This document shows, piece by piece, positions 13,977-49,769 of a DNA stretch of 62,458 nt. This DNA is from a virus (lineage: Duplodnaviria; Caudoviricetes): positions 1 to 62,458 of the IMG/VR virus record IMGVR_UViG_3300045741_000405, one strand, 5' to 3'. The position numbers were made by a program, and so were the translations under genes. Each line of letters opens with the position of its first letter. Positions within the stretch are counted from its first letter, which is position 1. A model generated the notes under the pieces. The model made no database searches. It had not been told where the DNA came from and saw only the letters and a list, made by a program, of their open reading frames with translations.

Positions 13977-14254
13977 ATATGGTGCATTCAGTGGACGAAG
14001 GCCAAATCCCAATCCCATCCGGCACTACAGAAAGTATGCAGATTTGGGGTAAGATGATCGTTCGAGAAATCGAACGTGTTGCGGATCAACTAGTGGCCAT
14101 CAATGTCAAGATTGCCGCTATTGAGACCACAGCCACCAAATTTGAAGTCAGCATTGCTGTTTTGAATGCTAAGGCTGGCGCTATGGGATTATTGGCCGGA
14201 ATGATTGCGAGTACGATCATTGGGCTTTTGTTCAAGTTTGTTTTCAAAGGGTAA
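13973..14254 (+). CDS. Coiled-coil protein with C-terminal TM helix
   Basis: Heptad region then GAMGLLAGMIASTIIGLLF. Confidence 0.6.
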   Translation: MNMVHSVDEGQIPIPSGTTESMQIWGKMIVREIERVADQLVAINVKIAAIETTATKFEVSIAVLNAKAGAMGLLAGMIASTIIGLLFKFVFKG

Positions 14255-14276
14255 TTATTCCTAGGAATAATCGGCA

Positions 14277-17200
14277 ATGCTTCGTAATGACACGCTTCCG
14301 CACACTCCTCCACCAACGTTAGCGTTGCAGTCTCATGGGGTAGAATTTGCAGATATGACATTTGGGACGCCATTAAGGCGTGTTTCTGCTGCCACTCTTG
14401 GGATAACTAATACAGCTAGGGGACTTCATACAGAGTATCCACAGTTATCGGCGTTTAATGCTGATGATTCACTGCTTCTTTGTACTACTGGTGGTGGAAT
14501 TAGGGGTGGTGGGAATATTGTAGCTCGGGATAACCCAACTCAGATTTTGCATGTCCTTGAGTTCACATCTGGGCTCAGTTCTGCCCATGAAGGTTCATCA
14601 GTACGATGGGATCCTGTTATTCCTACGCGGCTGTGGTTTTATCAAGATGTCAATGTCGGTGGGGCAACCCTGACTGGTAATACCACTGCTGGAAGTCCAA
14701 CGATAACTAGCTGTGTATCCACTATTGGGTTTAATCCTGGAGATACTGTATATGTTTTGGGAGCTGGTCCACTAAATAGTCAGGGCAATGACGGAATGTG
14801 GAAAAGTACTGTGGTGAGTACCACAGGAAGTACCATAACGTTAAATTCAAACGCCACAGTTTCTAAAACTGGTACGAGGTATAATCGAACTGCGAGATTG
14901 TGTCGGTATGATTTAAACACTTCTGTTGTTCCATATACACGGACAATAACGACAGTCTATGATTTCACAGAATATTTTCGTGTTGAGAATTCTGGTGGAT
15001 CAACAAATTGGACCGGTGGTAATTCTAATTCAGCACCTTCTGCGTCTTGGGAAGAGATGTCCGATGATGGTTCTTGGATGGCTGGAGTTGGGACAATTGA
15101 TGGAACTAAACTTGGGTATGGGTATATAAGTAATTCTTCGGCTGGATCGTCTGGAACAAGTTTCGCACCAAGAAATCATGAAGTATTTGCGTTAAATGTT
15201 AAGACAGGAATTAAGAAAGTTATTAACGTAGTTCAAAGTCCTGCCGCGTTACCTCCTTCTTTGGGTGGGACATTAGGGGCAGCTTATGAGCCTTATGGAA
15301 CCAATGATGCTGTTGATTCCATAGATTGGTGTGCGATGTCGCCTTCAGGTAATTATGTGATTGTGCAGAACAACACTAATATCTGGTTAGGTGGTCTTTG
15401 GTCTCAGGCTGGTGGATCCAATGCCTATTCTACTAGTACTGGCGCGTATGCCGGAAAATTATCCGGTCGTCTTGGGCACGGAGATCTATTTCAAGATGCC
15501 GCTGGGACAGAGTGGCTAATACAAGATCAAAGTGGCGGCACGGATAGTATGGCCGGGGATTACATTTCCATGGTCAAAATACCACAGGGAGTTACTTGGT
15601 TTGTTGGGCAGGAATTTACTTCACTTGGGGTAGATAAAACGAATACTTTTGCGAATGGGCAAGTAATCAGAATTCTAAAACACAAGTACGCCAATATTCA
15701 CGTTTCAGCTAGGAACACTGGGTTAAAGAGCTATGTTCTTGTTGAATGCTACGGAACAAATTTTTCTAACGTTGGGTTTGATCCAGATTTTCGAGATGAG
15801 GCTGTCATAGTTTATCTTGATTCGAGATGGGGTAATCCGAATGTAATAGACAGTCTGCATTTTGAACGTCTATGTCATTTTAGATGTAGCCGAACTGCGG
15901 GGGTGGGTGAGGCAGACGGGTACTATAGGGAAGCACATCCGGCTATCTCCCACAATGGAGAGTACGTGGCGTTTACCTCTGATTGGGGAAATAATGCAGT
16001 TCCAACGGATGTTTATATTGCTGATTTAGCTTGGTTTAAGCATTTCCCGTCTACCAAGACTTGGCGTAGAGCACCTAAAATCACAAATTATGCTAATCGG
16101 TACAATGACCACAATGGTTGGACTGCTTTAGCGGGAGCATTGGGGTTTACACGAGACCAAGATGGAATCTATCTTGAGGGCGCTACTTGTGGAGTAGATG
16201 GAAAAGTCGCCGTAACTGGCGGGCATGGAATTCCGTATGGTAATGATCTTTGGAGATTTGATCCAAATTTATGGCGATGGATTAATGTAATTCCCACTGA
16301 TCCAAATCCATGGAATTCTAATATCGGACAAACTTCAGATGTAATTAAGCAGACCAGAAGAGTCCAAACCGCCACAACGAATTCTACGAATGTCACATTT
16401 TCATTCGGATCAAATGCCGGGGACGTCCCGAATAATGGACAAGGTATTGATTGGGTGGCCGGGACTACGTTAATTAATGTTTGGGATTATAAGTTCACAA
16501 CTCAGAAATATTCGAATCTCGGTTTGGCGTCAGTTTCTTCTACCTCATGCGTGTTTACTTCAAGTGTAACGCTCGCGGTAAATGATATTTTGATATCCAC
16601 AGCGCTACCACAAAATAACCAATTTCCGCCGTGGTACTCCTTTGCCAAGCCATGGATTGGGCATCCCTATTGCAGCGTAAAATCAATGGGGGATTCAATT
16701 CTTGTTGGGTCCAAAAATTCTGGGCAACCAACAGTATATTGGAATCACATTTGGAAGTACTCGCTGAATAGTGGATATTCGTTGGTTGATTTTGGAGTTA
16801 CTGTAACAGGTGGATTTTCATTCCCAGGAATGGGACTTGGAACATACAACAATCAAGATGCTTGGCAGGCTGCTCCAACAGCGTATATCTCTACGACAAA
16901 TCAAGTGTTCAAGTACAACAATCAGGGAAGCCCTGCCGGCTCGCAATCGGCTACCGGCTCGATTGGAATTTTTGATATAGCTACAAAAATATGGTCGTTC
17001 TATGCACCTACACCGAATCCAGGAAGAAGAGAGGGTTCGGCGTGCGTTTATGATTCTCTTCGAAATCGTGTATGGTTATTCGGACAAGGAGACGAAAATA
17101 GTCCTGGAGTATGGGCAAACGCAAAAAATGATGTGTGGTACTTCGACTGTTCCACACATATTTGGGCACAGGCAACTACAACCGGAACTTCTCCATCTCC

Positions 17201-17639
17201 TAGAGGACAATGTAGCACGGAATATGATCCAGTAAGCGATACATGGTTAATAGCTTATGGGAGAGCTGGGGATCAACAAAATGGAAGTACGGCAGCTAAC
17301 CCATACTACAATGATGCCTATGTTCTTCATTTGGACACCCTTGCTTGGGAAAGACTTCCAGATGTTCCAGTTTTAGCTTCACCTATAAATGGCTCTACGG
17401 CTGGGTTTGGGGCGTCTCTTGGATGCTATTTACCACAGCCGTACAATTGTTATGCGGTAATAGATTATCAACGCGATCGTGGCCCCACACCTGGTGGAGG
17501 CGTAAATGGGGATGCTTCAGACGATCCAACCTTTTTATTCCTAAGAATGGTGGAGACAGGTTCTCCTCCACCTCCGCCCCCACCTCCGCCACCTCCGGTA
17601 TTTTCGGGTACCCCAATTATTCCTAGGAATTTCATGTAA
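14277..17639 (+). CDS. Large putative virion appendage protein (beta-propeller and Kelch-like repeats)
   Basis: HPAISHNGEYVAFTSDW; Kelch-like YDSLRNRVWLFG, NDVWYFD, PSPRG; poly-Pro C-terminus. Confidence 0.65.
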   Translation: MLRNDTLPHTPPPTLALQSHGVEFADMTFGTPLRRVSAATLGITNTARGLHTEYPQLSAFNADDSLLLCTTGGGIRGGGNIVARDNPTQILHVLEFTSGLSSAHEGSSVRWDPVIPTRLWFYQDVNVGGATLTGNTTAGSPTITSCVSTIGFNPGDTVYVLGAGPLNSQGNDGMWKSTVVSTTGSTITLNSNATVSKTGTRYNRTARLCRYDLNTSVVPYTRTITTVYDFTEYFRVENSGGSTNWTGGNSNSAPSASWEEMSDDGSWMAGVGTIDGTKLGYGYISNSSAGSSGTSFAPRNHEVFALNVKTGIKKVINVVQSPAALPPSLGGTLGAAYEPYGTNDAVDSIDWCAMSPSGNYVIVQNNTNIWLGGLWSQAGGSNAYSTSTGAYAGKLSGRLGHGDLFQDAAGTEWLIQDQSGGTDSMAGDYISMVKIPQGVTWFVGQEFTSLGVDKTNTFANGQVIRILKHKYANIHVSARNTGLKSYVLVECYGTNFSNVGFDPDFRDEAVIVYLDSRWGNPNVIDSLHFERLCHFRCSRTAGVGEADGYYREAHPAISHNGEYVAFTSDWGNNAVPTDVYIADLAWFKHFPSTKTWRRAPKITNYANRYNDHNGWTALAGALGFTRDQDGIYLEGATCGVDGKVAVTGGHGIPYGNDLWRFDPNLWRWINVIPTDPNPWNSNIGQTSDVIKQTRRVQTATTNSTNVTFSFGSNAGDVPNNGQGIDWVAGTTLINVWDYKFTTQKYSNLGLASVSSTSCVFTSSVTLAVNDILISTALPQNNQFPPWYSFAKPWIGHPYCSVKSMGDSILVGSKNSGQPTVYWNHIWKYSLNSGYSLVDFGVTVTGGFSFPGMGLGTYNNQDAWQAAPTAYISTTNQVFKYNNQGSPAGSQSATGSIGIFDIATKIWSFYAPTPNPGRREGSACVYDSLRNRVWLFGQGDENSPGVWANAKNDVWYFDCSTHIWAQATTTGTSPSPRGQCSTEYDPVSDTWLIAYGRAGDQQNGSTAANPYYNDAYVLHLDTLAWERLPDVPVLASPINGSTAGFGASLGCYLPQPYNCYAVIDYQRDRGPTPGGGVNGDASDDPTFLFLRMVETGSPPPPPPPPPPPVFSGTPIIPRNFM

Positions 17640-18376
17640 TGGCTATTGTTCATGAACAAGCAGGTGGCGCAACGTCCTCTTCTGTCACCACGATTAACTC
17701 TGCTTCTGGAGTAGCCCTTAAGAACAATTCGATTTTAATTGTTGCAGCTACTTCCACAAATTTTTCAAATACACTAACGATTTTTGATTCGATTGGAAAT
17801 ACGTATACCAACTTTAATTCTATGCCACTTGTTAACCAATCGAGTACTGGGGTGATTCGTGTGGCTTGGGCTCGAAACACTACTGTTTCGACGAATACGT
17901 TCTCACTATCTCAATCGCTTACCACGAATATTGGATTTAGTTGGTGTGAGATTTCTGGGCTTGATACCACACCCTCTTTTATTGGGGCGCAGCTTACTGG
18001 AACTGCGAATACTTCTACGATCTCAATTGGTCCGGTAAGTAATAGCGTTGCCAATGCCATTCTTCTTTGTATTGGATGCGAACCAGGAGACACAGGCGAT
18101 GGCCGTAGTGTTGGGTCAGTTCCGAGTGGGATGCTTCTTTCTACAGATAATCGGATTCTAATTGAGTACAAGATACTATCTGCATTAGAATCAAATACAC
18201 CGCAGATTAATCTTCAATATGCGGGACCCGGTTCGTGGGCTGGGATTGCGCTAGTTTTGCAGGAGGTTGCTCCAGTATTTCCGCCACCTCCTTTTTTGGA
18301 TCGGCAAGGACATAGACCTTTAATAGCAAAGAATCAGTATTCTAAACCGGATAGACTTTTCAGGATTGGACGATAA
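17639..18376 (+). CDS. Ser/Thr-rich putative virion protein
   Basis: Beta-rich composition, TAATG coupling, structural region. Confidence 0.6.
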   Translation: MAIVHEQAGGATSSSVTTINSASGVALKNNSILIVAATSTNFSNTLTIFDSIGNTYTNFNSMPLVNQSSTGVIRVAWARNTTVSTNTFSLSQSLTTNIGFSWCEISGLDTTPSFIGAQLTGTANTSTISIGPVSNSVANAILLCIGCEPGDTGDGRSVGSVPSGMLLSTDNRILIEYKILSALESNTPQINLQYAGPGSWAGIALVLQEVAPVFPPPPFLDRQGHRPLIAKNQYSKPDRLFRIGR

Positions 18377-18386
18377 GGAGTAACTT

Positions 18387-18851
18387 ATGGCCGGAGTATA
18401 CGGAGTAGTAACAGCAGAAAATTTCTCTTGTAATTCGTCTTCTATTCCGATGACGATCGCACAAATCGTTGCTGGGACAAATCACCGTGTAGTGATTAAG
18501 GCATGGAGAATTTTCTTTGAGGGAACCACGTCAACAAATGCCCCGGTAGAAGTTCGATTTTTACGGCAATCAAACGCGACTGGATCTGGAGCGGCCATAA
18601 CAGTAGAAAAAAAGAATTCCGCAGATGACGAAACTCTTGTGACTACGGCAATAAGCTGTTCTGCTTCTGGGTCTCAGCCAACGAATACTGGAAATCCGCT
18701 ATTTATTGGTCGAATTCACCCACAAGGAAATTATGGGGAAATGGTGGTATTCGATAATCCGATTATTGTTCCTGGTGGAACGCGGCTTGGAATTCTATTA
18801 ACTGCCCCCAATACCGTTGAAGCCACCATTACGGTTGATTTCGAGGAGTAA
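18387..18851 (+). CDS. Putative virion protein
   Basis: AAGGAG SD; 154-aa beta-sandwich-like. Confidence 0.6.
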   Translation: MAGVYGVVTAENFSCNSSSIPMTIAQIVAGTNHRVVIKAWRIFFEGTTSTNAPVEVRFLRQSNATGSGAAITVEKKNSADDETLVTTAISCSASGSQPTNTGNPLFIGRIHPQGNYGEMVVFDNPIIVPGGTRLGILLTAPNTVEATITVDFEE

Positions 18852-18872
18852 TTATTCCTAGGAATAATTGAG

Positions 18873-20099
18873 ATGGCTCTTCAGATCAAATCAGGATCAT
18901 TTACGCTAAATGGGACCACCGGTTCTCAGACTGTGACTGGAGTTGGATTTACTCCAGTAGCCGTAATTTTCGCGGTACAGAATCTCACAACTGATGGAGT
19001 AGATTCTGGGAGCGGCAAACTCGGTTTTGGAATGGCCACCTCCTCCACTAAACGAGTTGGATTTGCCATAGCGGATTCATGTAGAGCGACAGATAATGCC
19101 GCTTGTATCCTCCTGTATTCCGGTGGTGGATCTTCTTTATGCAATGTTGATTTAACAAATTTCAATAGCGATGGTTTTGTTTTAAACATTGTTCAGACGA
19201 ATGGCTCGCAGCGAGTTGTTTGTTACACCGCGATTGGTGGGGCAGATGTAACGAATGCCGAAGTGGTGCAATTCCAATGTCCTGCCTCAACTGGATCATA
19301 TTCCTATAGCTCTTTATCCTTCAAGCCTGACGCGATCATATTCATGACCGCTGGGTTTACCGCATTGCAAACTTCCGAGATTGCTACCGGAAGGCTTGGG
19401 ATTGGCTTTACTTCTGGTTCGACTAATAGTATGTGCATGACCATGGCGAGTGAAAATACCGCTGGGTCACGTAAGCAGCTTGCCAAATGTATTCACCTCG
19501 CAGATGTTGCCAATACTATAAAACTTGACGCAACTCTAACATCTTTTGATAGTGCTGGGTTCACCTTGAATTTCGGGACTGTGGAGACGAACGATTACAT
19601 TTTTGGGCTCTGCATAAAGGGTGGGCAGTATACCGTAGGAACTTTTACAGAATCTACAACGAACAATTCTCAGGCTATAACCGGTATTACATTTGCCCCC
19701 AAAGGGCAGTTATTGATGAGCTATAACGCGGTCTCTGGGACCTCTTCCTTATCTGATGTTCGTAATTCATTTGGATCAGGAGAAAGTTCCACTTCCAGAT
19801 GGTGTGTTTGGAAAGGCACATTCTCACCGTCTGATGATTGCGTATATTTGGACAGGACGAAAACAATTCGATTGATGACCTCGGCTTCTTCCACGAATAC
19901 GAATCAGGGAATTGCCGACCTTACTAGTGAGGATGGGGGTGGGTTCACACTAAGTTGGACGGCTACAGATGGGACAACACGAGAGATTATTTACCTTGCT
20001 ATGGGAGATGCCCCTGGAGCTGAAACAATAACCATAGATAAGTGGTTTCAACCCGCTTCAAATATCGTTAGGGAACCGTATCGAGTAGTCGCTTACTGA
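18873..20099 (+). CDS. Putative virion protein with three internal repeats
   Basis: Repeated GFTP.AVIF / FKPDAIIF / FAPKGQLL and DGFVLN / AGFTLN / GGFTLS. Confidence 0.65.
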   Translation: MALQIKSGSFTLNGTTGSQTVTGVGFTPVAVIFAVQNLTTDGVDSGSGKLGFGMATSSTKRVGFAIADSCRATDNAACILLYSGGGSSLCNVDLTNFNSDGFVLNIVQTNGSQRVVCYTAIGGADVTNAEVVQFQCPASTGSYSYSSLSFKPDAIIFMTAGFTALQTSEIATGRLGIGFTSGSTNSMCMTMASENTAGSRKQLAKCIHLADVANTIKLDATLTSFDSAGFTLNFGTVETNDYIFGLCIKGGQYTVGTFTESTTNNSQAITGITFAPKGQLLMSYNAVSGTSSLSDVRNSFGSGESSTSRWCVWKGTFSPSDDCVYLDRTKTIRLMTSASSTNTNQGIADLTSEDGGGFTLSWTATDGTTREIIYLAMGDAPGAETITIDKWFQPASNIVREPYRVVAY

Positions 20100-20111
20100 A
20101 AGGCTAAAAAC

Positions 20112-20570
20112 ATGCCACGTCGTTATGCCGTTTCTATCGCCGGACAGACTAATACCGCTGGAAAAGTACTCTGGGATATTCTTGCCACGGCCACAGTACG
20201 GCCAACGTTGTACGATCTCATCATTGGATCGCACGCTACTCCGGCTGATAATTCTTGCCAGTATGAGGTATATTTGGCAGCGGATGCTGGAACTACCCCA
20301 ACAGCTAGCGTAACTCCGAAAGCATTGGATGCTACTGATCCAGCCGCAACTGCCTCGTCTCATAAGGGGATATATTCTGTTGATCCCGCTGTTAGCGGTG
20401 GAGCCCTACTTGAAATTCCTTTGAATCTCCGTTGTACGTTTAGATGGATTGCCACACCCGGTGGTGAGCTTATTGCTTCTGCAGCAACTACCTCTGGATT
20501 CCTCTTTAAATCCATTGCTGTGAGCGGTTCTGCGTACACAGTTGATACTGTTGCTCATTACTGGGAATGA
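20112..20570 (+). CDS. Putative virion protein
   Basis: 152-aa Ala/Thr-rich; similar size and style to 18387-18851. Confidence 0.6.
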   Translation: MPRRYAVSIAGQTNTAGKVLWDILATATVRPTLYDLIIGSHATPADNSCQYEVYLAADAGTTPTASVTPKALDATDPAATASSHKGIYSVDPAVSGGALLEIPLNLRCTFRWIATPGGELIASAATTSGFLFKSIAVSGSAYTVDTVAHYWE

Positions 20571-20590
20571 ATCATTATTCTTAGGAATAA

Positions 20591-20875
20591 ATGATGGGCA
20601 TTATAAAAACTCTTGAAGAGTTTAAATTTTTAGCACAATCTGTTAGAAAACCAAGTGGGTATTTTGTTTTAAACGGTGAACAGATCGCGGATACCGTTCA
20701 ATGTGGGCATTGCCAAAAGCATTGGGTACCGATGCGCGGGTCTGGAATTCGTCGTGGTTGGTGTATGAATTGCGGAAAACCCACTTGTGGTTCTCAACAA
20801 TGTGATAACTGCATTCCTGCGGAACGTAAACTTGAGTTGATCGAAAAAGGGATAAATCCGCGTCAATCAGAATAA
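20591..20875 (+). CDS. Cys-rich Zn-binding protein
   Basis: CGHC, CMNC, C...C..C. Confidence 0.65.
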   Translation: MMGIIKTLEEFKFLAQSVRKPSGYFVLNGEQIADTVQCGHCQKHWVPMRGSGIRRGWCMNCGKPTCGSQQCDNCIPAERKLELIEKGINPRQSE

Positions 20876-20881
20876 GGTAAA

Positions 20882-22252
20882 GTGGCCAAACTTTTCCAAT
20901 ATCAAAGTCTCTCCGTAGAGCCAGCACATCTTCTTGATAAAGAAGAGACCGCTGCCCATTTGGATAAGTGGTGGCAGCAACCGTCCGAGCCAATAGTTAA
21001 GAGAAGACGTCCAGTAGCTAATATCGGTATTACGGTAGTAGATCCTCTTCTTTTAACTCTACCGGAAGAAACAGCGTCACACTTAGATAAATGGTGGCAG
21101 CAACCGTCTGAACCAATAGTTAAACGAAGACGTCCAGTAGCTAATATTGGGCATATCTCTATTGAGCCTCTTCTTATCACACAAAAAGAAGAGACTGCCG
21201 CTCATATAGATAAGTGGTGGCAGCAATATTCAGAACCAATAGTTAAAGTTCGTCGTCCAGTAGCCAATATTGGGTTTACTACCACTGATCCAAAGCATCT
21301 TCTTGATCCCGGTCCGGCTCCAGCAACCGGTGGGCCACTGTGGACAGCAAGAAATCTTGCGCCACGCGGGATCAATTTCACACCTGTAATTTATCCAGCT
21401 CTTGCTGTTATTACTGGAACAGCCACAAATTTCATAGAGATAGTTGGGCCACTTCCAACTCCGATTAATCGGTATCTCAAGCCACCTACCTCGCACCAAA
21501 CGAAAAGACAGATAAGATTTAAACGACATTTCTACCAAGGAATGTACGTTATAGATCCTTCGTTGGGAGTAACTGCTCAAGCAGATAATCGAACAGAGAA
21601 TAAGGCCAATCAACAGACGGCAGTTTCCGTTCTTGTAGAATGGCTAACTCAGCAAGTTATTCCTAAGAATAATTTGAATGAGAATCTCGGGCAGATCTTT
21701 TCACAGATCACAAACCTAAAAGAGAATAAAGGAAATCTCACTCCAACAGCTTCCGAGTTAACAGAGAATCTACTTCAGCTCATTCCGCAAGCCAATGATC
21801 TAAATGAATGGCTTGCTCAAGCGGGTGTTTCCGCCGTTTCTAATACTGCAACGAATATCCTCGAATGGATTCAAACTACTACCCCAGCTCAAAGCACTGA
21901 TCGAACAGAGAGCCTTGTTTTCCTTCTTTCTTCAGCTTTAACTTGGAATGAATGGCAGACCTCGTTGCTTCGTTCGGCTATCGATTTCTTTGAGTACGAG
22001 GGCTATCTCGGACCTACCGCTACGAATTTCTGGGAAATAACTCTTTCCGCCGCCTTTATTAACTCCTTGTCTCTGGATAGAATTGAGATCAAGCAGTTAG
22101 TGAGTACGGTGACAACGAATGTTTCTGAATTCCGGTTGGGCACTGGAGTGGTTGTGCTAACGAGAGATCTTTTTACGGATGTTCTTATTTCGCAAGATTT
22201 ATTCGTGGATAGTCAAATAACGCAAGATTCAGTCGTAGACGTTGATATTTGA
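20882..22252 (+). CDS. Protein with three 41-aa N-terminal repeats
   Basis: EETAAHLDKWWQQPSEPIVKRRRPVANIG x3, 123-nt period. Confidence 0.7.
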   Translation: MAKLFQYQSLSVEPAHLLDKEETAAHLDKWWQQPSEPIVKRRRPVANIGITVVDPLLLTLPEETASHLDKWWQQPSEPIVKRRRPVANIGHISIEPLLITQKEETAAHIDKWWQQYSEPIVKVRRPVANIGFTTTDPKHLLDPGPAPATGGPLWTARNLAPRGINFTPVIYPALAVITGTATNFIEIVGPLPTPINRYLKPPTSHQTKRQIRFKRHFYQGMYVIDPSLGVTAQADNRTENKANQQTAVSVLVEWLTQQVIPKNNLNENLGQIFSQITNLKENKGNLTPTASELTENLLQLIPQANDLNEWLAQAGVSAVSNTATNILEWIQTTTPAQSTDRTESLVFLLSSALTWNEWQTSLLRSAIDFFEYEGYLGPTATNFWEITLSAAFINSLSLDRIEIKQLVSTVTTNVSEFRLGTGVVVLTRDLFTDVLISQDLFVDSQITQDSVVDVDI

Positions 22253-22264
22253 AAAGGATGTCCC

Positions 22265-23026
22265 ATGTCAATCATTCAAGCTGAATTGATTCAATATCAG
22301 TCGGCAAATATGCCGGTGGACGATGTGTCCACTTCCGGTGGTGGAATCAATGTTGCCGGAAGAGCCGATCTATTTTCTGCGGAAGTTCCGTCTCCGGCTC
22401 AAACGATCAAGCTTGCCTCCACTAACGCCGGGGATACTAGAACTGTAACCATCTTTGGGCGGAATAATGCTGGAGCGATTGTTTCTGAAGCTAAAGCATT
22501 GACCGGAACTACGGCGGTTACAACCACGCAGGCATTTGAACGTATCTCTAAAATCACGGTTTCCACTACGACCACGGCAGGAATCGTGATTAACGTTATG
22601 CGAACGAATCCAGCGGACGATGGTATTCTTGCCGCTATCCCAGCGGATATTACGAGTTGTCAGAGAATGTTCTATGATTCGCAATCAGAAGCTTCTCAGG
22701 CCGTTCGGTATGAGAAATTATTCTGGAAGAATACCAATTCTACGCTCACCCTGAATAACGCTACCGTTAAGCTCACTTCCAATCCGCTTTCTAAAATCAA
22801 GATTGCTCTTGAGGCGTCCTTAAATGACACCAATTCAGTTGCCAATAGGAAAACGGTCCCGAGTGGTGGGCTTACATTCGTTGATCAGAATTCAACTCCG
22901 TCAGTTCCAACTGGAGCCATTCCCTCTGGATCGGCAATTGGTACTTGGGTACAGCAGACGTTAGCGATTGCTGATGCCGCTGCGAAATCTTCTCATCAAA
23001 CCCAGCTTACTGGAACCACTACCTAA
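22265..23026 (+). CDS. Putative virion protein
   Basis: AAAGGA SD; Thr/Ser/Ala-rich. Confidence 0.6.
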   Translation: MSIIQAELIQYQSANMPVDDVSTSGGGINVAGRADLFSAEVPSPAQTIKLASTNAGDTRTVTIFGRNNAGAIVSEAKALTGTTAVTTTQAFERISKITVSTTTTAGIVINVMRTNPADDGILAAIPADITSCQRMFYDSQSEASQAVRYEKLFWKNTNSTLTLNNATVKLTSNPLSKIKIALEASLNDTNSVANRKTVPSGGLTFVDQNSTPSVPTGAIPSGSAIGTWVQQTLAIADAAAKSSHQTQLTGTTT

Positions 23027-23041
23027 TTATTCCTAGGAATA

Positions 23042-23287
23042 ATGATGCCGGTGTCTACCGATGACATCCTTTTACCAACACCTGGATTGGAGGTCCGTCC
23101 GGCATGGGACCAGCGTTCTTGGAGTTGCTCAGGAAGGATTCTTCTTTACCGAGAGGATTTAAATCATTTTAGGATTCATTGTGGGTTCGATATTTCTGCG
23201 ATGATCCGAAATATTCCTAAGAATGGAAAAGAGTACCAAATCGCATGCCCAAAATGTGGGAATCTGATTACGGTACAAAGGACGTAG
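23042..23287 (+). CDS. Zn-ribbon protein
   Basis: C...HCG...CPKCG. Confidence 0.55.
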   Translation: MMPVSTDDILLPTPGLEVRPAWDQRSWSCSGRILLYREDLNHFRIHCGFDISAMIRNIPKNGKEYQIACPKCGNLITVQRT

Positions 23288-23291
23288 AATA

Positions 23292-23612: not shown

Positions 23613-23614
23613 TC

Positions 23615-24223: not shown

Positions 24224-24241
24224 TTCCTAGGAATAATTACT

Positions 24242-25284: not shown

Positions 25285-25318
25285 TTATTCCTAAGAATAA
25301 TTTGTTGGAGATTTAAAT

Positions 25319-26335: not shown

Positions 26336-26366
26336 TTATTCCTAGGAATAATTGAAAGGGCATTAG

Positions 26367-28763: not shown

Positions 28764-28783
28764 ATTATTCCTAGGAATAACTG

Positions 28784-31407: not shown

Positions 31408-31425
31408 TTATTCCTAGGAATAATC

Positions 31426-32769: not shown

Positions 32770-32784
32770 TTATTCCTAGGAATA

Positions 32785-36881: not shown

Positions 36882-36899
36882 TTATTCCTAGGAATAATT

Positions 36900-40599: not shown

Positions 40600-40626
40600 T
40601 TATTCCTAGGAATAATTGAGGGAGCA

Positions 40627-41163: not shown

Positions 41164-41321
41164 AGGACCGTCATGGTTGCCCTATAAACGTACTTGAAGG
41201 CTTTATAAGATCCCAAGGTCGTCAAGACCGTCACTGCGTTTATAGGGCATTTTAGACACCTTTAAGACCTATCTCGGAAAATAAGGACTTACGTTATTCT
41301 TAGGAATAAAGAGGTAATCGA

Positions 41322-42452: not shown

Positions 42453-42471
42453 TTATTCCTAGGAATAAATC

Positions 42472-42666: not shown

Positions 42667-42691
42667 TTATTCCTAGGAATAATTGGTTCTA

Positions 42692-42800
42692 CCCCCTTCT
42701 CCCCCCAACACCCCTCTCTTCCCCCTTAACCCCTAGCTCTCCCCTTAACCCCTCTAGTTCATCTTTCTAGTTCATCTTTCTAGTTCATCTTTCTAGTTCT
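42692..42800. repeat. C-run tract followed by CTAGTTCATCTTT x3.5
   Basis: CCCCTTAACCCC twice; 13-bp tandem starting at 42754, 42767, 42780. Confidence 0.85.
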
Positions 42801-42989
42801 TTCCTGCTTCGGAAGAACGAGTGGAACAAGTCCCCCCTTACCCCCCATCTATTTTGATAGGGTTTATAAGGAGGACTTAGGCCACTCCACTTCGGAGGGA
42901 AGGTGCAACAAGTCCCGAGAAGAAGCACCAAGATGTAGATCATACCATCCTTAGTTGTGGTGTCAATACCAGTACTTTTATTTTTACTC

Positions 42990-43017
42990 TTGCCATTATT
43001 CCTAAGAATGGTAGACT
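42990..43017 (+). promoter_or_regulatory. Putative promoter with a palindrome variant as its spacer
   Basis: TTGCCA-[TTATTCCTAAGAATGG]-TAGACT. Confidence 0.5.
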
Positions 43018-43032
43018 CCAGAATTAGATGAG

Positions 43033-43302: not shown

Positions 43303-43318
43303 TTATTCTTAGGAATAA

Positions 43319-43635: not shown

Positions 43636-43977
43636 GTGTTCATGAAAAAGGAAATTCTGAACTTGGACGAGGAGGACGCGAAGATTCCAACTGATGCAGA
43701 GGGATCGGAAGCGATTCGAAGAATTGGTGAACTGCTTTATGCCGCACGGATGGCTAAGAAGCTCCGTCTGAAAGATGTTTCTAAGGATCTGGAAATCCCT
43801 TCTTCGGCCCTTTCCAACCTCGAAAGCGGCGTAGCGGCTCCGACATTTACCGTTGTTCGACGTATCGGGGATTACCTCGGAGTAGACCAAAAGGTGATCC
43901 AGGATTTATACATCGCATTTAAGGTCTATCGTGTACGGAAGAAATACGAGATTCTTGGGAATCTTAAGAAGGAGTAG
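43636..43977 (+). CDS. XRE-family HTH regulator
   Basis: RMAKKLRLKDVSKDLEIPSSALSNLESGVAAPT. Confidence 0.85.
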   Translation: MFMKKEILNLDEEDAKIPTDAEGSEAIRRIGELLYAARMAKKLRLKDVSKDLEIPSSALSNLESGVAAPTFTVVRRIGDYLGVDQKVIQDLYIAFKVYRVRKKYEILGNLKKE

Positions 43978-43980
43978 TAT

Positions 43981-44862
43981 ATGTCAGATGATCTCGGGAT
44001 CGATGAGGCTCTTGCGGATTTGAAAGTTGGGGATGATACTTCGACCAAGGTTATGGATATCCCGCTGAAAAGTCTTCAGCTCGAAAACCTTGATCGCAAT
44101 AAGACGGAGTTCAGCGGCGAGAAGCAGCAAGAATTGATTGATTCAATCCAGGCCCAAGGATTGATCTCACCAATTGTGGTTCATGAGCTTGAGGAGAAGC
44201 CGGGAACCTATCGGGTCATTGCCGGCAAGCGGCGCGTGATGGCCTATAAGAAACTCAAGCGTGAAGCCATTCCAGCCATCATTCGAAATGTCTCCGGTGA
44301 GTTCGATTTCCAGTCTCAGGTGATTCTGGATAACGTGGTCCGAACCCAGCCGGATGTGGGCAAGTATGTTCCCATCATTAAGGAATGGCTTGAGACCGGC
44401 GTTTGCAAGTCTCAGGAGGAAGCAGCGAAGAAACTCGGGCTATCTCAGTCTTGGGTTTCCAAAATGCTTCGCTATGAAGAATTGCCGGATGAAGTGAAGG
44501 CAGGTATCAAGCCGGCAAATCTTCCTTCTTCCGACGAAATCGAGGGGGCTTCACCTGAAGAAATCGTTAAAAAGGTTTCCGATAAAATCTATACCAAGCT
44601 GCCTTCGGAATATCTTAAGCCTTCTGAGGGTGATGCCGTCCCACTCAAAGTCCATGTCTCGAAGAAAGCGATTAGACTTCAGGTGGAGATTGCTTTCTCT
44701 GAACTCAAAGACAAGTCTATTTCCCAGCAGATTGCCGCTCATCTTGAACGGATTGGGGAAAAGGAATTGTTCTCGAATATCAAGAAATTCAAGAACATGG
44801 AGTTCTCTAATAAGGTGAACGGCAAAGACACTGAATCTACCGATAAGGCTAATGGGGACTAA
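43981..44862 (+). CDS. parB: ParB/Spo0J-like protein (CTPase-type N-domain + HTH)
   Basis: ELIDSIQAQGLISPIVV, IAGKRRVMA (GxRR), SQEEAAKKLGLSQSWVSKML. Confidence 0.88.
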   Translation: MSDDLGIDEALADLKVGDDTSTKVMDIPLKSLQLENLDRNKTEFSGEKQQELIDSIQAQGLISPIVVHELEEKPGTYRVIAGKRRVMAYKKLKREAIPAIIRNVSGEFDFQSQVILDNVVRTQPDVGKYVPIIKEWLETGVCKSQEEAAKKLGLSQSWVSKMLRYEELPDEVKAGIKPANLPSSDEIEGASPEEIVKKVSDKIYTKLPSEYLKPSEGDAVPLKVHVSKKAIRLQVEIAFSELKDKSISQQIAAHLERIGEKELFSNIKKFKNMEFSNKVNGKDTESTDKANGD

Positions 44863-45259
44863 TTCGATCGATTGGGGTCTTTTGTATAAGAGGTTGGGGG
44901 AATTCCAAGAGAAGCTCGTTATTCCTGGGAATACCCCAGCCTCTTTTCAGCGTTCACTTGATTCCGCATACTACGTTCAGCAGCAGGTTACAATTGCGCA
45001 TAACCTTCTTTTACAAAAACGGGCCGATGTCGAAAGTAATCTCCTCGGTCTTAGAACTGAGGCTAAACTTCATTCGAGCGGGTTTAACATTGAAAACGGA
45101 ATCCATACTAAAATCTCTGAAGCAGCAGCATTTATTGTCCAATGTGAGGCACTCATACTTTGCATGAACAAAGTCCTTGCTGCCTGTAAGGATCTCCGTA
45201 ATGACGTTTCAAAAAGGGTAAAGCTCATGGAACTTGAGCGAGTATTCGAAAAGGATTAA
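44852..45259 (+). CDS. Helical hypothetical protein
   Basis: Overlaps the parB stop; coiled-coil character. Confidence 0.6.
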   Translation: MGTNSIDWGLLYKRLGEFQEKLVIPGNTPASFQRSLDSAYYVQQQVTIAHNLLLQKRADVESNLLGLRTEAKLHSSGFNIENGIHTKISEAAAFIVQCEALILCMNKVLAACKDLRNDVSKRVKLMELERVFEKD

Positions 45260-45261
45260 CA

Positions 45262-46026: not shown

Positions 46027-46042
46027 TTATTCCTAGGAATAA

Positions 46043-46567
46043 ATGCCCCCAAACAAAACTTGGAAATCCACCGAGTACCAAATTGCAGCCTTACTTGGTG
46101 GAAAACGTACACCTCTATCGGGCTCCAATTCTGGCCACCATACGTCTTCAGACGTTTTAGGTCTCCCAGATCGATTCTACATTGAGATCAAGCGCAGGAA
46201 GGCGTATACGACGTTTTTCACCCCTTATATCGAGCATTTGAAGCGTGGCAGGCATTTCGTTATTCCTGGGACTAACCTAATCTTCTTCTGGCTTTCCCCT
46301 AAAGGAGAGTTTGAGAAGAACCCGTCCTCCTATTTATCTCCGTCGAATCCGAATCGAACCCGTGCTATTAAATCTTTATTTGAGGCAACGCAGAAGTTGG
46401 GGTTACACGAAGGAAGATCAATTCCAATTTTGATTTTCCGAGGTCATTCCATGAAGGGGTTTTTTGTTTTACTCAAGAGGATAGACTTGAAGGAATTTAC
46501 GGAGCTTTTGAATGAAGCCGGGCTTCGACGTGAACAGCTCGCATTGGAGAAGCAATCTTCTTCGTGA
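46043..46567 (+). CDS. PD-(D/E)xK nuclease, Holliday junction resolvase-like
   Basis: WKSTEYQIA, SDV...FYIEIKRR. Confidence 0.65.
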   Translation: MPPNKTWKSTEYQIAALLGGKRTPLSGSNSGHHTSSDVLGLPDRFYIEIKRRKAYTTFFTPYIEHLKRGRHFVIPGTNLIFFWLSPKGEFEKNPSSYLSPSNPNRTRAIKSLFEATQKLGLHEGRSIPILIFRGHSMKGFFVLLKRIDLKEFTELLNEAGLRREQLALEKQSSS

Positions 46568-47312
46568 TTCCTCTTATTGTCGGCTGAAGATTTACGCCCT
46601 TTTATTTTTCCGAGTTAAGCGGGCACATACTGAGATTGCCACACGTTCCCCAGTTCGAAAGCGTTTCTTCGTAGAAGTTTCAAGTAGTAGTATCCACCTA
46701 CCATTCTTTAAAAGAATCTTTCATCTCCTCGATAACCGAATTGTCTGTCATTTTACCTATGGGGCAAAGGGAGTTCCCTATAGGGAGTATACAGCGGTTA
46801 GGGTGGATCTATTTGTCAAAGATTCGAATCGAAAGCAGACGTTCATCGATAAGACAATTTCAATCCCAGCATTTGTTTACAAGCCACTTTTACTTTTATC
46901 TGCCACTGAGGAGCAGCGGATCGTTGGGATTGGGGCTGGGATAACTAAGGCAAGCGATTACCTATATTCGTTAGTTGTTTTTAAGTTCAAGGAATTACCG
47001 GGTCTTTATGCCCTCATGTTTAAATCCACTTGGGATTTTTACTATCGATTATTCCGCCATGAAACGCCGCTCATTGTTCTTGGAAAGAGGACTATTCTTA
47101 GGAATATAAAATGCCATCCAGATCAAAAGGAGAAAGCTTTTCAGAAGCTATTGCTTTCTGCCGCAAACGAGGTCAGTTCCAATCGCACAGTACTTCCATA
47201 CCTAGGGTGCCTACTCAAATCATTGGGATTGATTGGCTCCTTGGAGGGGGGGTACCTAAAGGACGGATTACCGAGATTTCCGGAGAAGAGAATTCTGGCA
47301 AAACTACTTTAG
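46512..47312 (+). CDS. Uncertain 266-aa ORF overlapping recA
   Basis: Only long ORF spanning 46568-47110; no recognisable motif. Confidence 0.35.
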   Translation: MKPGFDVNSSHWRSNLLRDSSYCRLKIYALLFFRVKRAHTEIATRSPVRKRFFVEVSSSSIHLPFFKRIFHLLDNRIVCHFTYGAKGVPYREYTAVRVDLFVKDSNRKQTFIDKTISIPAFVYKPLLLLSATEEQRIVGIGAGITKASDYLYSLVVFKFKELPGLYALMFKSTWDFYYRLFRHETPLIVLGKRTILRNIKCHPDQKEKAFQKLLLSAANEVSSNRTVLPYLGCLLKSLGLIGSLEGGYLKDGLPRFPEKRILAKLL

Positions 47313-48103
47313 CTGCCGAGATAACGAAAGCATTCCAGCATGAAGAAGAGCGAGTTCTCTATCTCGACTATGAGCATTCAGTTGATTTGGGATTCTTCAA
47401 GAAGATTGGTGTGGAGATTTCCAACGAGGCATATTTCTTATACGAGCAACCATTTTCCCTTGATGAGGGTGTGGAGACAATTCTCAAGCTTGTTAGAACA
47501 GGCGAAATTGGTCTTCTTATAATTGATTCTATAGCGGCGATGGTTCCGAAGCAGGAACTTGAAGGGGAGTTCACGGATCAAACTATTGCGCTACAGGCTC
47601 GGCTGATTAGCCGATTTTGTCGTGATCTTATTGGCCCACTTGGAAGCACGAATACCGCTGCGATATTCATTAATCAGACACGTTCGAAAATAGGTGGGTT
47701 TTCTCCGCAGCCTAATCCGCAGATTACCTGTGGTGGGAATGCCATCAAGTTTTATTCGTCCATTCGATTCACGACCAAACGAATCGAAGCTCCCAAACTT
47801 GGTGGAATTCGATGTCGTGCAACGCTCAAAAAGCAGAAGACTTGTTTCTCAACTCCTATTTCAGTTGAGTACGAGATTACCAAAACTGGAATTGATCATT
47901 ATGGGGCATTGTGTAGAGCCGGTCTTGATACTGGAGTAGTGGTCCAAAAGGGTGGGAAGATTCTTCATGGCGAAACACAGGTTGCTGGCAGTTCCGCTGA
48001 GTTCATAGCGAAGATTGAAGCGGACCAAAAGCTCAGAGCTAAAATCAGTGCTGAAGTGCTTTCTATCTGGAATAAGACGGATCTTTCCATTGTGGAAGAG
48101 TAA
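47111..48103 (+). CDS. recA: RecA-family recombinase
   Basis: GGVPKGRITEISGEENSGKTT, IIDSIAAMVP, QARLIS, FINQTR, GGNAIKFYSS. Confidence 0.95.
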   Translation: MPSRSKGESFSEAIAFCRKRGQFQSHSTSIPRVPTQIIGIDWLLGGGVPKGRITEISGEENSGKTTLAAEITKAFQHEEERVLYLDYEHSVDLGFFKKIGVEISNEAYFLYEQPFSLDEGVETILKLVRTGEIGLLIIDSIAAMVPKQELEGEFTDQTIALQARLISRFCRDLIGPLGSTNTAAIFINQTRSKIGGFSPQPNPQITCGGNAIKFYSSIRFTTKRIEAPKLGGIRCRATLKKQKTCFSTPISVEYEITKTGIDHYGALCRAGLDTGVVVQKGGKILHGETQVAGSSAEFIAKIEADQKLRAKISAEVLSIWNKTDLSIVEE

Positions 48104-48122
48104 TTATTCCTAGGAATAATCC

Positions 48123-49769
48123 ATGCAGATAGAGGTTCGAAAAAATGGTTTCTGTATTGTCCACGATATTGAGCAGCACCTTATACAAGATGCCGTACTT
48201 GGAAGAATTGGTGGCTCAGTATCCAGATATACTGGATGGAGATGGCTTCCGTATCTCAAGAGTAAGGCTCATGAGTTTATTTTTCGAAGCACGTCAGATA
48301 AGGAAAACCTTCAAAATCTGATCGATAGGCGCAAAAGTGCTGAGATAGTTCACACCGAAAAAATAGAGAGTACAGAGTTGTATTCTGCCGTATCCACAAT
48401 CGCATTGTGGCCGTGGCAGGTATCAGCAGTTGAACTTATTCTTAGGAATAAAATCGCCTATATTTCCTATGACGTTGGGCTTGGAAAAACTTTATCTGCG
48501 ATTACGGCGATTGTTGTTCTCAGGAAAAGACAGGCGATAAAATCATCCCTTATCCTTTGTCCTGCTTCCATTCTGTATCAGTGGAAGGATGAGATACTCA
48601 ACACGATTAAAAGTGAATTTCAGCCAACGATTGAGATTGTCCGTGGATCCAAATCTCAAAGAGAGGATTCCTGGACGAATGAGGCGGATATTTACCTTAC
48701 TACTTATGAGTCTTTCCGTGAGGATCAGACAAGCCATAGGGTAGCGGCAAAGGATAGGATAAATCTCATTGTGCTTGATGAGGCTTGGAAGGTTAAGAAT
48801 TACCAGGCACAGGTTCATGAGGCGATACGATCTTTTGTATCCCCCAAATTGGAGTATCGCATCGCTCTTAACGCTACTCCGATAACGAACAACTATCTGG
48901 ATATCTTTGGGGCATACGCGATTCTTGATCCTCTTTTGTTTATCTCCAGAAAGAACTTCCTTTCTCGTTATGCGGTGTACAAGAAAATCTACATTAGGAA
49001 ATTGCATCGTTCTATTCAATCTTTGGACGGGTATCGGAACACGGAAGAAATAGAACGGCTTGTTTATCCTTCTTTACTGCGGAAAAACTCCGAATCAATT
49101 GGAAGAGAACTTCCATCTATTTTGGTTGTGCCATATTGGGTGGAATTGAATGCCAAACAGCGGAAGGACTACGATTTATTAAAGTCCAATATGCTTTTAA
49201 ATCCCCTTGAGAAATGCACAGCAGCGAGATTGGTATGCTTGGATTTAGCGGCTGTTGTGACGTCTGCGAAGTATCTTGTTTTACTGGATATTTTGAAAGA
49301 GGTTTTGCAGGGGCGTAAAGCGGTTATTTTCTCGGAGTCTGCAAGGTATGTTGAAGTACTAAAATCAGAGGTAGGTAAGCAGGGGTATCTCGCTCTGTCC
49401 ATTACTGGGAGTGATTCTGCACAGGACCGAATGGTATCAGTGGACAAGTTCAATCAATCTTCGCAGCTTTTATTCACGACAAGGGCTGGGGAAGCTGGGC
49501 TAAATCTTCAAGCAGCGGACTATGTGATCAACATGGATTTGCCTTGGACACCTTCTTCCCTTAAGCAACGTGTTGGAAGAGTACGTCCATTTCTTGGTGG
49601 TTCTTCTAGGGCCATCACTGTGATCAATGTCCTTACTCGTGATACGATTGAGGAGAGAATTATTGAGATTATCAGAGCTAAACGGCAGATGATTTCGAAT
49701 TTCTTCAATCAACCGGAAGATGATTTGGTTGGTGAGTTCAATCCGAATAATCTTGTGAAGATGCTTTAA
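48123..49769 (+). CDS. SNF2-family helicase/ATPase
   Basis: DVGLGKT, LDEAW, ATPITN, GEAGLNLQAA, QRVGR. Confidence 0.9.
   Translation: MQIEVRKNGFCIVHDIEQHLIQDAVLGRIGGSVSRYTGWRWLPYLKSKAHEFIFRSTSDKENLQNLIDRRKSAEIVHTEKIESTELYSAVSTIALWPWQVSAVELILRNKIAYISYDVGLGKTLSAITAIVVLRKRQAIKSSLILCPASILYQWKDEILNTIKSEFQPTIEIVRGSKSQREDSWTNEADIYLTTYESFREDQTSHRVAAKDRINLIVLDEAWKVKNYQAQVHEAIRSFVSPKLEYRIALNATPITNNYLDIFGAYAILDPLLFISRKNFLSRYAVYKKIYIRKLHRSIQSLDGYRNTEEIERLVYPSLLRKNSESIGRELPSILVVPYWVELNAKQRKDYDLLKSNMLLNPLEKCTAARLVCLDLAAVVTSAKYLVLLDILKEVLQGRKAVIFSESARYVEVLKSEVGKQGYLALSITGSDSAQDRMVSVDKFNQSSQLLFTTRAGEAGLNLQAADYVINMDLPWTPSSLKQRVGRVRPFLGGSSRAITVINVLTRDTIEERIIEIIRAKRQMISNFFNQPEDDLVGEFNPNNLVKML

Follow-up and report, generated by a model that had tools for sequence, protein, structure and literature searches.

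The IMG/VR virus record IMGVR_UViG_3300045741_000405, which was analysed over its entire length of 62,458 bp and is referred to as the window, raises the question of why one short palindrome recurs at its gene junctions, where it frequently stands directly between the stop codon of one gene and the start codon of the next. Our favoured reading of the sequence, to which we attach about even confidence, is that these palindromes are scattered binding sites for a dimeric protein which the phage itself encodes, probably a ParB-like one, and that the AGGA contained in them secondarily serves as a Shine-Dalgarno (SD) sequence.

The 16-mer TTATTCCTAGGAATAA matches the 62-kb genome at 51 positions with no more than two mismatches, compared to a mean of 0.01 in 100 shuffled sequences, none of which (0/100) reached this number. 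Twenty-four copies are exact, 39 contain at most one mismatch, and the density amounts to about one site per 1.2 kb. As an A at position -1 (30 of 39 sites) and a T at position +1 (28 of 39) extend the symmetry of the 16-mer, the full repeat unit is the 18-bp palindrome ATTATTCCTAGGAATAAT; further out, copies located within genes are often flanked by CAA and TTG. In addition, a 17-bp form exists which harbours one added central base, TTATTCCT[C/G]AGGAATAA, and is present in three copies with exact arms and about five with one arm mismatch. Among the one-mismatch copies of the 16-mer, 13 of 16 carry solely C7>T or G10>A, i.e. an exchange of the inner C of CCTAGG or of its complement, and the variants away from starts are strand-symmetric in this respect (ten C7>T and eight G10>A). 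This position may either tolerate exchange or mutate particularly often, as a methylated cytosine would. The genome contains 28 CCTAGG hexamers (11.9 expected from base composition), 26 of them inside the palindrome and two elsewhere; the reading of CCTAGG as a restriction site led nowhere.

As judged from the collections searched, the palindrome is specific to this phage. Other IMG/VR contigs contain single chance matches only (12 loci), and GTDB genomes yield 13 single matches with no species genome holding more than one copy of the 18-mer, for which reason a repeat of host origin was rejected. The spacing of the sites is slightly more even than random (coefficient of variation 0.77 versus 0.98, P = 0.03), from which we draw no conclusion since the junctions themselves are evenly spaced.

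Placement at stop and start codons and within genes

Positions were assessed by means of a gene model which is based on open reading frames (ORFs) rather than on a gene caller, comprises 82 genes covering 94.5% of the sequence, and includes certain small ORFs and starts that are uncertain. A mechanical classification assigns 36 of the 51 sites to junctions, eight to the inside of long open frames and seven to other positions. At 19 of the junction sites a stop codon ends between -3 and +1 relative to the motif and at 23 a start codon follows within 6 nt; of the 67 gene junctions located right of position 6000, 31 hold a site. Sites are also present on the left arm, within genes, in non-coding arrays and beyond 14252-48125, the interval with which an earlier note on this DNA was concerned. 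That note had described the palindrome as being often the entire intergenic spacer, with a stop on one side and a start on the other, and the sequence bears this out: all 15 stops it had cited (8191, 14254, 18851, 23026, 25284, 26335, 31407, 32769, 36881, 40599, 42452, 42666, 43302, 46026 and 48103) are directly followed by the 16-mer with a gap of 0, and the seven cited starts lie within -1 to +6 nt of its end (23042 and 32785 at -1, 46043 at 0, 36900 and 31426 at +2, 48123 at +3 and 14277 at +6).

Sites named here and below refer to the + strand unless indicated otherwise. Exact copies which are bounded by such a stop and by a start are located at 14255-14270, 18852-18867 (start 18873), 23027-23042 and 32770-32785 (both overlapping the start), 31408-31423, 36882-36897, 42453-42468 (start 42472), 46027-46042 and 48104-48119, the last of these between the stop of the RecA-like gene and the start of the helicase gene. 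Exact copies likewise follow the terminase stop (8192-8207, with a second copy of two mismatches 2 nt past it at 8210-8225), stop 26335 (26336-26351), stop 40599 (40600-40615, followed by a GAGG SD of its own and start 40627) and stop 42666 (42667-42682, marking the left end of a non-coding gap of 350 nt); the copy behind stop 43302 (43303-43318) has one mismatch. Further copies are found 1 nt after stop 28763 (28765-28780, exact, start 28784), 3 nt after the stop of the major capsid gene (12380-12395, one mismatch) and 3 nt after stop 57824 (57828-57843, exact). The motif may also contain or overlie the stop itself, as at 24221-24236 (one mismatch, gene 23615-24223), 49767-49782 (two mismatches, helicase stop, abutting the PolA start), 53609-53624 (one mismatch, DnaB stop, 2 nt before the primase start 53627) and 55051-55066 (one mismatch, gene 54692-55060), or it occupies the final codons of a gene, as at 17617-17632 (two mismatches, gene 14277-17639, 6 nt before start 17639) and 33251-33266 (exact, gene 32785-33273, 3 nt before start 33270). 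Copies ahead of a start are situated at 20575-20590 (one mismatch, C7>T, abutting start 20591), 41294-41309 (one mismatch, 12 nt before start 41322), 47092-47107 (three mismatches, 3 nt before the RecA-like start 47111) and 60465-60480 (two mismatches, 15 nt before start 60496). On the - strand, an exact copy at 3063-3078 fills the junction between 3080-3406 and 1905-3059, a copy with one mismatch at 1628-1643 abuts start 1627 with AGGA kept in the coding sense, and a copy with two mismatches at 1281-1296 forms a junction from which the start of 1044-1277 is 3 nt away. The stop codons abutting the motif are TGA and TAA, never TAG, one reason being that the last A of the stop and the preceding R coincide with the outer positions of the palindrome.

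Where a start follows closely, the AGGA of the motif is apparently put to use. In about 20 genes starting no more than 6 nt past the motif it is the only SD, motif-free genes being preceded by AAGGAG or AAGGA. The five junction variants which the earlier note had listed as keeping AGGA (20575, 47092, 49767, 53609 and, on the - strand, 1281) indeed retain it 0-3 nt before the start, and at the two sites said to have lost it a separate SD follows: 12920-12935 (one mismatch, G10>A) is succeeded after 11 nt by AGGAG and then by start 12947, and 25285-25300 (one mismatch, behind stop 25284) after 18 nt by GGAG and then by start 25319. Variants beside starts keep AGGA in the coding sense in seven cases and lose it in none, compared to ten and eight elsewhere (Fisher one-sided p = 0.040). 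From the sequence, AGGA probably serves as SD where a start lies within 6 nt downstream, and we take this role to be a secondary constraint on the motif.

As RNA, the palindrome would fold into a hairpin of about -4.2 kcal/mol, consisting of a 7-bp A-U-rich stem with one G-C pair and a CUAG loop; its z-scores in six natural contexts range from -0.41 to -2.35. Over 64 copies, mismatches in the arms are uncompensated: the proportion of paired cells is 80.1% as opposed to 82.9% for shuffled data, and not one of 500 shuffles fell below the observed value. Hence, neither a stable fold nor compensatory changes indicate an RNA element under selection for pairing. No Rfam family matched, and no tRNA was found. 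An intrinsic terminator was rejected because the stem, with a single G-C pair, is not GC-rich and is not followed by a run of T. A promoter was rejected as well: promoter-like matches are fewer than in shuffles (22 compared to 36.1), and a -10 element inside the motif would put the transcript start beyond most of the abutting start codons.

These observations bear on the proposal of the earlier note that the palindrome is an intercistronic part of the mRNA whose hairpin hides the AGGA until the terminating ribosome opens it, so that translation of the next gene is coupled to that of the preceding one. We consider this unlikely. The stops and starts close to the motif, the genes starting there without any other SD and the retention of AGGA beside starts would all be accounted for by coupling, as would the position of the palindrome close behind the stop in all five phages compared below and its variable centre (16 or 17 bp in the window, one to four bases in the relatives), since hairpin loops may vary in this way; yet the hairpin is weak and its pairing is not preserved by compensatory change, a structural device needs no identical sequence at 24 sites, and copies occur deep within genes as well as in non-coding arrays. 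What stands of the proposal is the probable use of AGGA as SD for starts within 6 nt; an SD hidden in a hairpin is not supported as the primary function of the motif.

The number of copies lying deep within genes is eight according to the mechanical classification and 12 according to the gene model (15 sites within ORFs), while chance predicts about zero near-perfect copies at such positions. Genes with near-perfect internal copies include those of the portal (9776-9791, one mismatch, in the variable C-terminal region), the protease/scaffold-like protein (10941-10956, exact, within 10175-11200, read as IIPRNN), the helicase (48436-48451, one mismatch), PolA (50954-50969, exact, over a conserved RRAIIP segment) and the DnaB-like helicase (53007-53022, exact, LFLGI frame). 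Additional copies are located inside 6007-6687 (6485-6500, one mismatch, read as LIPKNN), 20882-22252 (21657-21672, one mismatch), 44852-45259 (44919-44934, two mismatches), 46043-46567 (46260-46275, two mismatches) and 51716-52270 (51824-51839, one mismatch, LFLGI frame). The copies are always read in one of two stop-free frames, giving IIPRNN or LFLGI. Those in PolA, DnaB, the helicase and 6007-6687 occupy ungapped columns in alignments with homologues; therefore, the in-gene copies arose by substitution and not by insertion of an element, and a mobile palindromic insertion of the MITE or RPE type was rejected. A device that depends on pairing alone would need no identical sequence at 24 sites, nor would it be expected within genes or, as shown in the next section, be replaced wholesale from lineage to lineage at fixed positions. 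That one exact sequence is kept, and kept in this phage only, speaks for a reader which recognises the sequence and is linked to the phage, rather than for a hairpin of purely structural meaning.

Related phages with palindromes of their own at corresponding junctions

The capsid protein of the window has relatives at 44-53% identity, and the window was compared to four related phages, G001 (62,920 bp), G002 (47,813 bp), G003 (16,886 bp) and 21 kb of L028. With 38-54% identity in terminase, capsid and tail protein, no two of the five phages are markedly closer to each other than the rest. Each of the four relatives possesses an over-represented palindrome family of its own, G002 and G003 sharing one motif. 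In L028, TTTTCCAnnTGGAAAA is present 16 times with at most one mismatch in 21 kb (0.00 expected), in G001, ATAAGCnGCTTAT occurs eight times in 20 kb (0.04 expected), and in G002 and G003, TATTCCAnTGGAATA lies within a longer asymmetric element and is found five times in 20 kb (0.01 expected). The number of central bases varies between one and four among these palindromes. As in the window, most copies are situated at junctions (11 of 15 in G001, 13 of 15 in G002, 12 of 17 in L028 and 2 of 2 in G003), and in all five phages the palindrome is found close behind the stop.

The positions as such largely agree between phages. Among 19 junctions common to the window and G001, six are occupied in both, four in the window only, none in G001 only and nine in neither (p = 0.0077); for the 21 junctions shared with G002 the corresponding numbers are six, four, none and 11 (p = 0.0039). 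Conserved occupied junctions include those between terminase and portal, RecA and helicase, helicase and PolA, DnaB and primase as well as three junctions of tail genes. The window sites concerned are those at 8192 (occupied too in G002, G003 and L028), 24221 (L028), 26336 (G001, G002 and G003), 28765 (G001), 32770 (G001 and G002), 46027 (G002), 48104 (G001), 49767 (G001 and G002) and 53609 (G001 and G002). The variable C-terminal part of the portal gene carries a site in four of the five phages (the window, G001, G002 and L028), and L028 has a site in the same protease/scaffold-like gene as the window.

The relatives also permit a judgement on the role of the SD. Behind the palindromes of G002 and L028, there is usually a separate SD. 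The palindrome of G001 is devoid of any GGA although its layout of stop, palindrome and start is the same as in the window, and six of the seven starts directly behind it are without SD-like sequence. An SD hidden in a hairpin is, because of the G001 palindrome, not the common principle of this group, and the three phages thus provide further points against translational coupling as the purpose of the motif.

The earlier note had also considered that the motif is a recombination site for the exchange of gene cassettes. This gained no support, as nine of the 17 breakpoints in gene content hold a site and so do 22 of the 50 remaining junctions (p = 0.58). A wider version of this idea, according to which the palindromes are recombination linkers or self-spreading repeats that act in module exchange or short-patch gene conversion with no trans-acting reader, appears improbable to us. 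The phage does encode a RecA/UvsX-like recombinase and helicases, short conversion patches would give in-gene copies without change in length, half of the motif in the exact PolA copy is already supplied by the conserved AIIP of the segment on which it lies, and one gene of Cluster O mycobacteriophages is, according to PMC4351075, flanked by 17-bp repeats. However, apart from the missing enrichment at breakpoints, the largest block specific to the window (12413-23612) has no site at its right edge, the motifs of the relatives differ, so that the repeats cannot mediate exchange between these lineages, and the conservation of positions across motif turnover requires selection.

We would like to note that the G002 element (AATATTCCAWTGGAATATTCCAAAGGTTAAT) is not only longer but asymmetric, contains three alternating half-sites and is mostly oriented along transcription; two of its copies are arranged in tandem at 17431-17500. 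Such directionality, together with the junction placement and the identical sequence of the copies, would be in line with recognition at the RNA level, either by a phage RNA-binding protein with sequence specificity or by an endoribonuclease, which would cut or regulate polycistronic mRNA at gene borders, T4 RegA and RegB being comparable examples of a phage RNA regulator and cutter, respectively. Of the explanations considered this is nevertheless the least probable. The copies inside the PolA, DnaB, portal and helicase genes would equally become targets of cutting or binding, Pfam and PHROGs scans of the proteins revealed neither an RNA-binding family nor an RNase family, and for such a site a perfect palindrome through the centre is needless.

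Candidate binding proteins and known systems

The favoured candidate binder is encoded at 43981-44862 (+ strand). This protein of the ParB/Noc/KorB family consists of 293 amino acids, in which a ParB N-terminal fold is followed by a helix-turn-helix (HTH). It matches Pfam ParB_N with 1.9e-15 and is just under the cut-offs for HTH_ParB (21.4 bits) and KorB (20.3 bits); its homologue in G001 reaches 38.1 bits with HTH_ParB, which is above the cut-off. Through both the N-terminal fold and the HTH it aligns with PDB entries of Noc (7ol9, 2e-16), ParB, Spo0J and KorB. A word-index search of 5.8 billion proteins for its relatives returned only the protein itself at E <=1e-10. Directly upstream of it, an XRE-family HTH protein of 113 amino acids is encoded (43636-43977, + strand), which is a candidate binder or partner. 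In the three phages checked (window, G001 and G002) the XRE gene directly precedes the ParB gene, and a copy of the respective palindrome is located just upstream of this operon. In the window, the copy at the head of the operon (42996-43011, three mismatches) lies 21 nt before its first gene and constitutes the 16-nt spacer of a promoter-like TTGCCA-16-TAGACT, which is a consensus match only. The operon is preceded by a non-coding gap of 350 nt (42683-43032), within which a C-rich 19-mer is repeated 3.4 times and the perfect 13-mer TCTAGTTCATCTT 3.6 times.

With its 16-18 bp the perfect palindrome resembles the cognate palindromes of 13-16 bp which are recognised by proteins of this family. 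Half-sites were aligned by their centres with those of the Noc binding site (NBS), parS and the KorB operator, as given in the methods of PMC7383237 and PMC11790492. The window agrees with the NBS in 5 of 8 positions, L028 with parS in 6 of 8, and G001 with the KorB operator in 5 of 7 at the same odd geometry; control half-sites (KorA operator, Cluster O repeat) do not exceed 4 of 8. This likeness is suggestive only, the chance of a single comparison being 0.005-0.03 among 25 non-independent comparisons. The window and G002 share the half-site TATTCC as well as the ParB recognition-helix residues SKML, and G001 differs in both (ATAAGC and SNWM, respectively). According to our own mapping from the PDB alignment, one of the contrasting residues is equivalent to residue 179, described as a specificity residue of ParB/Noc (PMC7383237). 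The helices of the XRE proteins from the window, G001 and G002 reveal no pattern that tracks the half-site. No ParA, CbiA or AAA_31-type partner was found among the 91 ORFs scanned, with only the RecA-like protein weakly touching CbiA, and Pfam and PHROGs scans detected neither an integrase nor a Y1 transposase.

According to the favoured reading, some 50-60 double-stranded DNA sites would be read by a sequence-specific dimeric protein encoded by the phage itself, most likely the ParB-like protein, perhaps together with the XRE HTH protein in a KorB/KorA-like arrangement. In a genome of which 94% is coding, such sites would be accommodated best in intercistronic gaps. Compaction would trim these gaps until the site abuts the stop, whose final A, often along with the preceding R, would then be part of the outer positions of the palindrome, and the next start would come to lie within a few bases of the site. 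As the right arm reads AGGAAUAAU, its AGGA would have been co-opted as SD of about 20 genes. Binding might entail, as for KorB and Noc, the CTP-dependent loading of a clamp for global control of transcription or for genome organisation, which is a guess. We infer the binding of a protein and the identity of the binder, and derive the effect of binding by analogy only.

Several points weigh against this reading. The link to the ParB-like protein consists of resemblance and a single contrast among three sequences, and the data are just as compatible with the XRE protein, a different protein of the phage or one of the host. As GKRR replaces the canonical GERR (the latter present in Noc) in the CTP box of the ParB-like proteins from the window, G001 and G002, the use of CTP is uncertain; as neither ParA nor an integrase was found, a role in partition is not obvious. 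The junction statistics are confounded by conserved overlap of gene pairs: overlapping genes cannot hold a site, so that part of the signal merely reflects that the same gene pairs stay coupled. The window contains 16-bp as well as 17-bp forms, and the central spacing differs by 1-2 bp among the relatives, which a hairpin loop tolerates better than a rigid dimer. For the strict adjacency of palindrome and stop codon, seen in all five phages, compaction is the only explanation offered. Finally, in Corndog gp90 only the ParB N-domain and no HTH was detected, whereas the protein of the window has both; Corndog gp90 was thus discarded as a parallel binder since it lends no support.

A host DNA-binding protein, such as a nucleoid protein or a global regulator to which each phage has adapted in its own host, seems a poor candidate for the reader of the sites, and we rate its probability as low. 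Dyad symmetry of the sites, lineage-specific motifs and the fact that no prophage relatives were found in GTDB genomes agree with a host reader. Yet no GTDB species genome contains more than one copy of the 18-mer, the phages keep two adjacent HTH proteins of their own, and in all three phages a site heads the operon which encodes them.

Among known systems, the closest phage precedents are the repeats of Cluster O mycobacteriophages and the stoperators of Cluster A, neither of which matches at the level of membership; in the following we refer to the pertinent passages of the papers cited. Cluster O phages harbour 17-bp palindromic repeats, TGTTCGGNNNCCGAACA, in more than 30 phage-specific copies throughout the genome, with two inverted arms of 7 bp and a variable centre, for which the authors predict a dimeric DNA binder (PMC4351075). 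Of the 34 copies in Corndog, 14 are intergenic, ten are situated near 5' ends and ten within genes (PMC4351075). The 51 copies of the window likewise exceed 30, 7-bp inverted arms as well as positions between and within genes are common to both, and so is a ParB-like gene. In contrast, the sequence of the repeat differs, Cluster O phages are GC-rich actinophages, and their repeats are described there as not closely tied to starts, whereas in the window 19 stops and 23 starts adjoin the motif. Motif turnover at fixed positions is not visible in Cluster O because the five genomes are closely related.

Stoperators are short sites of which up to about 30 are distributed over the genome, mostly away from promoters (PMC6550527, PMC9283540). 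Their consensus differs among related phages and co-varies with the repressor, and syntenic sites exist (PMC6550527). The sequences of the group studied here follow the same pattern, as the motif differs among related phages while its positions are syntenic. However, stoperators are asymmetric, comprise 13 bp, are oriented along transcription and are bound by the monomeric immunity repressor of temperate phages (PMC6550527, PMC9283540). The window site is a perfect palindrome, only the G002 element being asymmetric, no integrase was found, and a ParB-like and an XRE protein are the binders to be considered.

Outside of these groups, dispersed operators serve as loading sites for KorB, a CTP clamp which silences distant promoters jointly with KorA (PMC11790492), while Noc nucleates on 16-bp sites around the chromosome (PMC8429893). 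As in the KorB-OB system of RK2, Noc-NBS and ParB-parS, a protein with ParB fold and HTH is here accompanied by dispersed palindromes, which comprise 13-16 bp in those systems (PMC11790492, PMC7383237, PMC8429893), and as with KorA-OA of RK2, the ParB-family gene has a gene for a small HTH protein as its neighbour. The sites of the window are, compared to these systems, far denser and located in gaps between stop and start; GKRR takes the place of the CTP motif, and a ParA was not found. In phage N15, a ParB-family protein, SopB, binds several separate inverted repeats, which form four centromere sites, and its spreading silences a nearby promoter (PMC7205306); N15 differs by having four sites as opposed to about 50, by the ParA partner SopA, for which no counterpart was found in the window, and by being a plasmid prophage. 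The start-associated sequences of Cluster K, a repeated motif closely linked to translation starts according to the discussion in PMC4351075, are unlike the motif of the window, which is palindromic, occurs also away from starts and within genes, and is tied to stops at least as closely.

Integron attC sites are palindromes downstream of genes as well and need the integron integrase. REP elements are also repeated palindromes just downstream of genes, but have a length of 20-40 bp and a GTAG or CGTC tag (PMC3733652), for which no match was found in the window. Both REP/RAYT and attC were rejected, as Pfam and PHROGs scans revealed no Y1 transposase and no integron integrase. Our literature searches, which covered the open-access library only, yielded no description of ParB-type sites at phage gene junctions, and the roles of phage-encoded ParB-fold proteins are stated to be largely unexplored (PMC12704722).

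In its most explicit form the favoured reading would state that, in an uncultured group of siphophages, a ParB/KorB-type clamp with an XRE partner loads at about 50 parS-like palindromes at nearly half of the gene junctions. We put this forward tentatively, as something rather to be doubted than expected. The same reservation applies to the joint proposition that one set of 18 bases acts as landing site, stop context, spacer and ribosome-binding site, and that site sequence and protein specificity turn over together from lineage to lineage with the positions of the sites remaining fixed. If true, it would amount to a genome-wide "punctuation" by which a lytic phage would control transcription or organise its genome. 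To dispersed dyad repeats of phages, for instance in Cluster O, neither a reader nor a function had been assigned. The present group offers a tractable case with one sharp site, two adjacent candidate binders, four natural specificity variants and conserved positions, in which both the reader and the function of the repeat become directly testable in vitro. The merging of a DNA-level site with stop, spacer and SD signals is also relevant to code overlay in compact genomes and to the design of synthetic operons.

Sites at the genome ends and gene content

On the left arm, several sites are found to which no strand is assigned. The 17-bp form is represented by TTATTCCTCAGGAATAA with one extra central base at 311-327 and by copies with exact arms at 798-814 and 1656-1672, the latter adjoined by an intergenic 16-bp copy with two mismatches (1670-1685). 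Two small ORFs of the - strand contain a copy, namely 770-1003 (889-904, one mismatch, CCTGGG) and 1044-1277 (1150-1165, exact). Towards the right end, an intergenic copy with two mismatches at 58467-58482 (+ strand) is followed by an exact one at 58629-58644 (+ strand), 2 nt behind a strong bidirectional terminator-like hairpin (58604-58626) whose 10-bp stem contains six G-C pairs. Further to the right and again without strand, two copies with two and no mismatches, respectively, lie 8 nt apart in non-coding sequence (59207-59246) among repeats of CTAAAATCAG, a non-coding array of about 230 bp (59608-59834) is made up of degenerate copies and half-sites in units of 21 and 36 nt which contain TTATTCCTACGAAT, and two 17-bp variants with one arm mismatch each (61531-61573) precede start 61581. 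The CTAAAATCAG repeats amount to about 12 non-coding copies at 59210-59485, with another position at 58590, beside the array of degenerate palindromes. By sequence they look like iterons, and the region may be an origin or the binding region of a second protein.

The ends of the record match, bases 1-146 recurring at 62312-62458 with an extra C in a homopolymer (C8/C9) as the sole difference. Therefore, the genome is probably complete with about 62.3 kb, and either circularly permuted or terminally redundant, though the record is classed as "linear, 60% complete". Its probable source is a sediment metagenome, the one sequencing run listed. According to profile assignments from the Pfam and PHROGs scans, the gene set is siphovirus-like and comprises terminase (6677-8191), portal (8293-10185), a protease/scaffold-like protein (10175-11200), an HK97-type capsid protein (11213-12376), a J-like tail protein (33270-36881), a RecA/UvsX-like protein (47111-48103), a helicase (48123-49769), PolA (49783-51774), a DnaB-like protein (52260-53618) and a primase zinc finger (53627-54280). 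No cultured phage is close, as a megablast gave no match and protein matches remain below 35% identity.

Between the capsid and the head-tail genes, a block of 11 kb (12413-23612) is located which is missing from G001, G002 and G003 and in whose place L028 has other genes; it includes a Kelch-repeat protein of 1120 amino acids (14277-17639). Finally, the hexamer CGGCTC is repeated about 275 times at 3745-5412, in an array with a super-period of 221 nt and 62% GC. On the - strand it reads as repeat ORFs rich in Glu, Pro, Leu and Arg, which weakly match the trypanosome EP-repeat family.

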